DNA from: Escherichia coli
GTDB lineage: Bacteria; Pseudomonadota; Gammaproteobacteria; Enterobacterales; Enterobacteriaceae
Assembly (NCBI RefSeq): GCF_044324785.1
Contig: NZ_CP172127.1
Length of the DNA stretch: 64,000 bases
Strand: one strand, 5' to 3'
The position numbers and the translations under genes were made by a program. Shown one piece after another: positions 58,112-60,739 of the stretch (position 1 is the stretch's first letter; every line of letters starts with the position of its first letter). Under the pieces are notes generated by a model. That model did not search any database and was not told the DNA's origin. It worked only from the letters and a program-made list of their open reading frames with translations.

Positions 58112-60739
58112 ATGAGCGACCTTGCGAGAGAAATTACACCGGTCAACATTGAGGAAGAGCTGAAGAGCTCCTATCTGGATTATGCGATGTCGGTCATTGT
58201 TGGCCGTGCGCTGCCAGATGTCCGAGATGGCCTGAAGCCGGTACACCGTCGCGTACTTTACGCCATGAACGTACTAGGCAATGACTGGAACAAAGCCTAT
58301 AAAAAATCTGCCCGTGTCGTTGGTGACGTAATCGGTAAATACCATCCCCATGGTGACTTGGCGGTTTATGACACGATCGTCCGTATGGCGCAGCCATTCT
58401 CGCTGCGTTACATGCTGGTAGACGGTCAGGGTAACTTCGGTTCCATCGACGGCGACTCTGCGGCGGCAATGCGTTATACGGAAATCCGTCTGGCGAAAAT
58501 TGCCCATGAACTGATGGCCGATCTCGAAAAAGAGACGGTCGATTTCGTTGATAACTATGACGGCACGGAAAAAATTCCCGACGTCATGCCAACCAAAATT
58601 CCTAACCTGCTGGTGAACGGTTCTTCCGGTATCGCCGTAGGTATGGCGACCAACATCCCGCCGCACAACCTGACGGAAGTCATCAACGGTTGTCTGGCGT
58701 ATATCGATGATGAAGACATCAGCATTGAAGGGCTGATGGAACACATTCCTGGGCCGGACTTCCCGACGGCGGCAATCATTAATGGTCGTCGCGGTATTGA
58801 AGAAGCTTACCGTACCGGTCGCGGCAAGGTATATATCCGCGCCCGTGCTGAAGTGGAAGTTGACGCCAAAACCGGACGTGAAACCATTATCGTCCACGAA
58901 ATTCCGTATCAGGTGAACAAAGCGCGCCTGATCGAGAAGATTGCGGAACTGGTAAAAGAAAAACGCGTGGAAGGCATCAGCGCGCTGCGTGACGAGTCTG
59001 ACAAAGACGGTATGCGCATCGTGATTGAAGTGAAACGCGATGCGGTCGGTGAAGTTGTGCTTAACAACCTCTACTCCCAGACCCAGTTGCAGGTTTCTTT
59101 CGGTATCAACATGGTGGCATTGCACCATGGTCAGCCGAAGATCATGAACCTGAAAGACATCATCGCGGCGTTTGTTCGTCACCGCCGTGAAGTGGTGACT
59201 CGTCGTACTATTTTCGAACTGCGTAAAGCTCGCGATCGTGCTCATATCCTTGAAGCATTAGCCGTGGCGCTGGCGAACATCGACCCGATCATCGAACTGA
59301 TCCGTCATGCGCCGACGCCTGCAGAAGCGAAAACTGCGCTGGTTGCTAATCCGTGGCAGTTGGGCAACGTTGCCGCCATGCTCGAACGTGCGGGCGATGA
59401 TGCTGCGCGTCCGGAATGGCTGGAACCAGAATTCGGCGTGCGTGACGGTCTGTACTACCTGACCGAACAGCAAGCTCAGGCGATTCTGGATCTGCGTTTG
59501 CAGAAACTGACCGGTCTTGAGCACGAAAAACTGCTCGACGAATACAAAGAGCTGCTGGATCAGATCGCAGAACTGCTGCGTATTCTTGGCAGTGCCGATC
59601 GTCTGATGGAAGTGATCCGCGAAGAGCTGGAACTGGTTCGTGAACAGTTCGGTGACAAACGTCGTACTGAAATTACTGCCAACAGCGCCGACATCAACCT
59701 GGAAGATCTGATCACCCAGGAAGATGTGGTCGTGACGCTCTCTCACCAGGGCTACGTGAAGTATCAGCCGCTTTCTGAATACGAAGCGCAGCGTCGTGGC
59801 GGGAAAGGTAAATCTGCCGCACGTATTAAAGAAGAAGACTTTATTGACCGACTGCTGGTGGCGAACACCCACGACCATATTCTGTGCTTCTCCAGCCGTG
59901 GTCGCGTCTATTCGATGAAAGTCTATCAGTTGCCGGAAGCCACTCGTGGCGCGCGCGGTCGTCCGATCGTCAACCTGCTGCCGCTGGAGCAGGACGAACG
60001 TATCACTGCGATCCTGCCGGTGACCGAGTTTGAAGAAGGCGTGAAAGTCTTCATGGCGACCGCTAACGGTACCGTGAAGAAAACTGTCCTCACCGAATTC
60101 AACCGTCTGCGTACCGCCGGTAAAGTGGCGATCAAACTGGTTGACGGCGATGAGCTGATCGGCGTTGACCTGACCAGCGGTGAAGACGAAGTGATGCTGT
60201 TCTCCGCCGAAGGTAAAGTGGTGCGCTTTAAAGAGTCTTCTGTCCGTGCGATGGGCTGCAACACCACCGGTGTTCGCGGTATTCGCTTAGGTGAAGGCGA
60301 TAAAGTCGTCTCTCTGATCGTGCCGCGTGGCGATGGCGCAATCCTCACCGCAACGCAAAACGGTTACGGTAAACGTACCGCGGTGGCGGAATACCCAACC
60401 AAGTCGCGTGCGACGAAAGGGGTTATCTCCATTAAGGTTACTGAACGTAACGGTTTAGTGGTTGGCGCGGTACAGGTAGATGATTGCGATCAGATCATGA
60501 TGATCACCGATGCCGGTACGCTGGTACGTACTCGCGTTTCGGAAATCAGCATCGTAGGCCGTAACACCCAGGGCGTGATCCTCATCCGTACTGCGGAAGA
60601 TGAAAACGTAGTGGGTCTGCAACGTGTTGCTGAACCGGTTGACGAGGAAGATCTGGACACCATCGATGGCAGTGCCGCGGAAGGGGACGATGAAATCGCT
60701 CCGGAAGTGGACGTTGACGACGAGCCAGAAGAAGAATAA
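58112..60739 (+). CDS. gyrA: DNA gyrase subunit A, 875 aa, carrying Ser83Leu
   Basis: ORF track; codon 83 (58358..58360) is TTG in the [10 protein letters not shown] context; codon 87 is GAC (Asp). Confidence 0.97.

Follow-up and report, generated by a model that had tools for sequence, protein, structure and literature searches.

Quinolones are held on the gyrase of Escherichia coli by a water-metal ion bridge, in which the Mg2+ bound by the keto-acid of the drug is anchored to the enzyme by Ser83 and Asp87, and mutation of either residue weakens quinolone action (PMC9917921). [quoted passage not shown] A leucine at position 83 makes this hydrogen bond impossible and its extra bulk leaves the drug badly placed in the gyrase-DNA cleavage complex, with the formation of fewer lethal cleavage complexes as a consequence. 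Later steps on an S83L background would comprise parC S80I, gyrA D87N, efflux mutations and plasmid-mediated quinolone-resistance (PMQR) genes.

The effect of these changes has been determined in isogenic derivatives of MG1655, where S83L alone gives a ciprofloxacin MIC of 0.38 mg/L versus 0.016 mg/L (24-fold) at a relative fitness of 1.01, that is, with no fitness cost; the MIC is 1 mg/L when S83L is combined with parC S80I and 32 mg/L when S83L, D87N and S80I are found together (PMC2714960). Of 195 resistant clinical isolates, 191 carried S83L, which is the favoured first step and under ciprofloxacin beats the other first-step alleles (PMC5400412). It is regarded as the first step of the trajectory leading to high-level resistance (PMC5400412, PMC10575684). 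In clinical isolates carrying only S83L, the zones measured 6-10 mm for nalidixic acid and 17-29 mm for ciprofloxacin (PMC12211035). According to Coluzzi et al. (2023, PMC10575684), 34% of RefSeq strains carry S83L, and 48 lineages independently gained S83L alone.

The window analysed here, a stretch of 64,000 nucleotides from E. coli (contig NZ_CP172127.1), contains an intact, full-length gyrA coding sequence at 58112..60739 on the + strand, as seen in the list of open reading frames, in the translation and in the NCBIfam matches. The gene starts with ATG, comprises 875 codons plus the stop and is the sole long open reading frame in the frame of codon 83. Its product is DNA gyrase subunit A, with a score of 1308.2 bits against the NCBIfam equivalog TIGR01063 (cut-off 877) and of 1256.5 bits against the GyrA model NF004043 (cut-off 902), and it scores under the cut-offs of the ParC models. 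The gene order yfaL-ubiG-gyrA-yfaA matches that of K-12, with ubiG divergent upstream of gyrA and yfaA downstream, a context that is also found in WP4-S18-ESBL-07 and in the draft GCA_044702345.1; the genes on the 3' side (yfaA, yfaT and an alpha-2-macroglobulin gene) are likewise those of K-12 and other E. coli. The TIGR01063 score (1308 bits vs 877) and the synteny with K-12 thus agree with the identification of the gene as gyrA in the preliminary description of this DNA, which had been made from the letters alone. Residues 1-525 are the same as in the structure of the E. coli GyrA N-terminal domain (PDB 3NUH), position 83 being the sole mismatch, and the N-terminal breakage-reunion domain is therefore intact in this alignment. 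The same alignment places at codon 122 (58475..58477, + strand) a tyrosine, which we take to be the catalytic DNA-cleavage residue of GyrA.

Upstream of the gene, TGTTATAAT (58059..58067, + strand) was read from the sequence as a putative extended -10-like element, located ~45 nt 5' of the gyrA start. A consensus promoter scan missed the gyrA promoter, and no -35 match was seen at TGTTATAAT. The element has the same sequence in the wild-type relative described below, which argues that there is no regulatory change. A terminator-like hairpin, 20 nt past the gyrA stop (60759..60776, + strand), is a candidate by consensus match only. The C-terminal tail of GyrA is naturally polymorphic in length and sequence: the 875-residue form is present in the window (60620..60739) and in K-12, and strain N3 (gyrA at 9341..11977 of its locus), together with several other E. 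coli, has a GyrA of 878 residues with a different acidic tail (..PEVESDDDVADDADE).

As 58112 + 82*3 equals 58358, the TTG triplet at 58358..58360 (+ strand) is codon 83 and encodes Leu, where the susceptible allele, by comparison with K-12, has TCG (Ser). A direct read of the + strand at 58350..58369 gives atggtgacTTGgcggtttat. The preliminary description had already read codon 83 as TTG, with the caution that a hand count might be shifted; direct reading and a re-read by script returned TTG at exactly these coordinates, with no shift. The script also returned GAC (Asp), the wild-type codon, at position 87 (58370..58372, + strand), again as had been described. In the quinolone-resistance-determining region (QRDR; 58310..58429, + strand), whose limits we take to be GyrA residues 67-106, a residue-by-residue comparison with K-12 showed a wild-type sequence at codons 67-106 except for residue 83.

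Over the entire gene, the ungapped comparison with gyrA of K-12 MG1655 (b2231) revealed 54 nucleotide differences, 53 of them synonymous. The remaining one, C248T (TCG to TTG), makes S83L the sole amino-acid difference between both proteins; there is no second gyrA change at Asp87, and GyrA has no other amino-acid change with respect to K-12. The alignment to K-12 proposed earlier as a check thus bore out the change of Ser to Leu at residue 83. The 53 synonymous differences would show strong purifying selection on GyrA. Codon 83 is TCG in K-12, in strain N3, in H1 and L010 and in the draft GCA_044702345.1, so that the codon earlier assigned to susceptible E. coli is the one carried by K-12, by the nearest complete genomes and by a near-identical draft.

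This near-identical relative was located through a look-up of the exact YfaL protein of the window in public assemblies. Contig DBBGLG010000004.1 of the draft GCA_044702345.1 is identical to positions 47344..63102 of the window at 15,758 of 15,759 bases, and the sole mismatch falls at 58359 (+ strand), nucleotide 248 of gyrA, where the draft contig has the wild-type C and the window has T, a C-to-T transition and the causal base of the substitution. The chance that one random difference within these 15,759 bases strikes 58359 is p ~6e-5, and the chance that it strikes any base of codons 83 or 87 is p ~4e-4. Since the relative is the same over the 15,759 bases except for the wild-type C, the difference is to be read as a point mutation that arose recently in the allele of this lineage itself. 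TCG is also found at codon 83 in the closest complete genome, N3, and in other near alleles. Leu83 is the derived state and not a polymorphism of the lineage, and one C-to-T transition explains it best. The value of p ~6e-5 and the 53:1 excess of synonymous over non-synonymous differences jointly point to selection and argue against error and drift. We are highly confident that the window carries an intact E. coli gyrA with the classical S83L substitution, and that the strain acquired it through one C-to-T transition in its own allele. From this genotype we infer both the S83L phenotype of the source strain and quinolone exposure as the selecting agent, whether through clinical or veterinary use or in the laboratory selection of a NalR marker.

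Other origins of this codon have to be weighed against the single transition. Homologous recombination with another S83L E. coli might have brought in the Leu83 codon on a short tract: the complete genomes MLI121, O166:H15 JNE070796 and MS1685, all three with TTG83, do not differ from the window at any position of 57901..58647 (747 nt), a tract of less than about 747 nt around codon 83 would be expected to leave no other trace, and acquisitions of gyrA resistance are occasionally overlapped by recombination tracts, as in 7 of 39 double-mutant events (PMC10575684). However, S83L appears readily de novo, representing 25-28% of the first-step gyrA mutants obtained in vitro (PMC5400412), and with a wild-type relative that differs at 1 of 15,759 bases a single C-to-T transition is the simplest account. 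We consider such an import very unlikely, and mechanism and phenotype would be unchanged either way. The import of a divergent gyrA in a large tract, as in ST1193, was discarded, as the mosaic of similarity with N3 extends along the whole window and not over gyrA alone, and as the clone-mate is identical except for one base; this leaves only a tract of < 747 nt. Spontaneous nalidixic-acid-resistant derivatives serve as marked strains for conjugation, colonisation and challenge work, and a real S83L could have been chosen deliberately in the laboratory in this manner instead of by field or clinical selection. An S83L-only genotype placed one base away from an otherwise identical wild type over 15.8 kb would fit this history, as would the presence of S83L among the commonest one-step mutants in vitro (PMC5400412). 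Against it, S83L-only genotypes are common in nature, with ~483 complete genomes in the present counts and 48 independent lineages in the literature (PMC10575684), and we regard a laboratory origin as unlikely; it is a question of history and not of mechanism, and overlaps with the explanation preferred here.

Two further readings of the T at 58359 retain practically no weight. It might be a sequencing or assembly error in a strain that is truly wild type, being a single-base difference from the closest relative and a base call known from the assembly sequence of the window. But such a random error would have struck the top-selected resistance base in 15.8 kb (p ~6e-5), at a position outside any homopolymer (GACTTGGCG), and would have produced precisely the canonical resistance codon that is seen in 2,300 complete genomes, a coincidence that is exceedingly improbable. 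It is just as hard to credit that Leu83 is a neutral polymorphism with no relation to quinolones in a divergent lineage of Escherichia. The lineage is certainly unusual, its gyrA being at most 98.9% identical to those of complete RefSeq E. coli genomes, but members of the same clone and all the near alleles examined have Ser (TCG), the other 53 differences from K-12 are all synonymous, as would be left by strong purifying selection, and position 83 has a demonstrated role in the interaction with the drug (PMC9917921). One point mutation on a wild-type allele of the same clone thus continues to be the reading adopted here.

The allele itself is widespread. The exact 37-mer containing TTG83 (gyrA nucleotides 218-254) is present in 2,300 of 5,420 complete RefSeq E. 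coli genomes (about 42%), and another 2,982 of the 5,420 have the same 37-mer with one mismatch. A 37-mer spanning codons 78-89, with TTG83 and GAC87, was found exactly in 411 genomes on a GTT85 background and in 72 on a GTC85 background, so that TTG83 is accompanied by a wild-type D87 in about 483 complete genomes and occurs on both synonymous backgrounds. About a fifth of the S83L genomes are single gyrA mutants like the window. At least 1,000 public contigs encode exactly this GyrA of 875 residues. When the 61 nt around codon 83 were used as an exact pattern, with the variable base set to N, species-representative genomes gave 0 matches.

The host clone is less well represented among finished genomes. 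For 25-kb pieces of the window the best identity to a complete RefSeq E. coli genome is 98.1-99.1%, and among 5,425 complete RefSeq E. coli genomes none has a gyrA that exceeds 98.9% DNA identity to that of the window. The closest complete genome, that of strain N3, alternates between blocks of ~99.95% identity and blocks of 96-98%; contigs from drafts and metagenomes, in turn, show ~99.99% identity with the window. Over positions 1739..22959, a metagenome scaffold from this clone has 1 mismatch in 21,221 bases. The clone is frequent among draft and metagenome sequences, and about 1 SNP per 15-20 kb separates its members. The values of <= 98.9% for gyrA and <= 99.1% for the 25-kb pieces had raised the suspicion of a Shigella or cryptic Escherichia origin, which found no support: NCBI labels the lineage-specific proteins as E. 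coli, and the window, colinear with E. coli, is free of IS insertions. An identity of 98-99% falls inside the range of the species E. coli. It is doubtful, though conceivable, that S83L marks a very recent rise of reduced fluoroquinolone susceptibility within this tight clone; if the clone were an epidemiologically important pathogen lineage, its path towards resistance would be seen in the window at the first step.

In the rest of the window, synteny assigns every open reading frame to a core gene of the chromosome (nuo, men, arn, rhm, glp, nrd, yfaL, ubiG, gyrA and yfaA/T/S), and no other resistance determinants were seen in this check, which was made by synteny only. A tblastn search found no GyrA paralogue (parC) in the window, as expected from the earlier statement that parC lies outside it, and scans with Rfam and for tRNA genes returned no matches. 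parE, gyrB, marR/acrR and any plasmid genes are likewise located outside the window, and the final level of resistance would depend on these loci and on parC as well.

Several differences in gene content and integrity were observed along the window. The yfbL gene (M28-family peptidase; 10378..11350, - strand) has lost the G of its ATG start (ACATAT-AAAAAAA vs ACATATGAAAAAAA in N3), and only a 272-residue open reading frame with a GTG start (10378..11196) is left, lacking the N-terminal segment; the gene is probably inactivated or truncated at its N-terminus. The same 272-residue call is made in the near-identical metagenome scaffold, which indicates a trait of the clone and not a read error. 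With respect to K-12, the region 9705..11740 lacks yfbK between elaD and yfbL, and yfbN-yfbO-yfbP between yfbM and nuoN. The elaD gene (ElaD/SseL-family deubiquitinase; 11739..12962, - strand) is intact, with 406-407 residues, and is annotated as frameshifted in N3. Between glpQ and inaA the window has an intact LysR-family regulator (45807..46706, - strand) and an MFS transporter (46858..48048, + strand), a region where K-12 keeps only the yfaH pseudogene and where the transporter of N3 is broken by ISEc31. A 70-nt direct repeat of ~94% identity (37791..37860 and 38034..38103) is placed at the 3' end of an rpnE/yfaD-like gene (37859..38818, - strand) and corresponds to the ypaA pseudogene fragment annotated next to rpnE in K-12. 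The yfaL gene (AIDA-I-type autotransporter; 53344..57102, + strand) is the part of the window that is most divergent from N3 (~96% over 54-58 kb), and its exact 1252-residue product is found in 212 index blocks of public assemblies. For the exact YfaL, ElaD and MFS proteins, shared by the public assemblies of the clone, the numbers are 212-258 index blocks.

By analogy with the isogenic and clinical strains, the genotype of the window predicts resistance to nalidixic acid and a low-level, borderline resistance to fluoroquinolones. The ciprofloxacin MIC would be expected to rise roughly 10- to 24-fold for S83L alone, to about 0.25-0.4 mg/L, and the expected phenotype is a first-step resistance with essentially no fitness cost. 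The practical weight of the finding lies in this prediction of nalidixic-acid resistance and borderline ciprofloxacin susceptibility, and S83L, as the step that usually precedes high-level fluoroquinolone resistance, is useful for typing of the source strain and for surveillance. On the biology of gyrase or quinolone resistance it adds nothing new.

Compared with the described systems, the window shares the founding S83L with the high-level genotype gyrA S83L + D87N + parC S80I of ST131-H30, ST1193, ST410 and similar lineages; that triple genotype has D87N, whereas D87 is wild type in the window and no parC is contained in it. The description of S83L as a first-step resistance change, made in the preliminary reading, is in agreement with the literature (PMC2714960, PMC5400412, PMC12211035). 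The substitutions GyrA D87N/G/Y and ParC S80I/E84 act by the same mechanism, in that helix alpha-4 of a type IIA topoisomerase loses an anchor of the bridge (PMC9917921, PMC3632122), but they affect another residue or another enzyme than S83L, and the window contains none of them. What is added by the present comparison is the gap of one base to a wild-type clone-mate, the restriction of the GyrA changes with respect to K-12 to a single one, and a clone with no close complete RefSeq genome. The chromosomal context is ordinary, and S83L, a resistance allele that is already known and common, is here, as had been anticipated, not new biology. The protein is identical in 875 of 875 residues to the standard S83L allele (MG1655 derivative LM378, Marcusson et al. 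2009, PMC2714960; UniRef A0A0D0MLT5_ECOLX), TCG has likewise become TTG at this codon, and the window differs from this allele in its synonymous background only.
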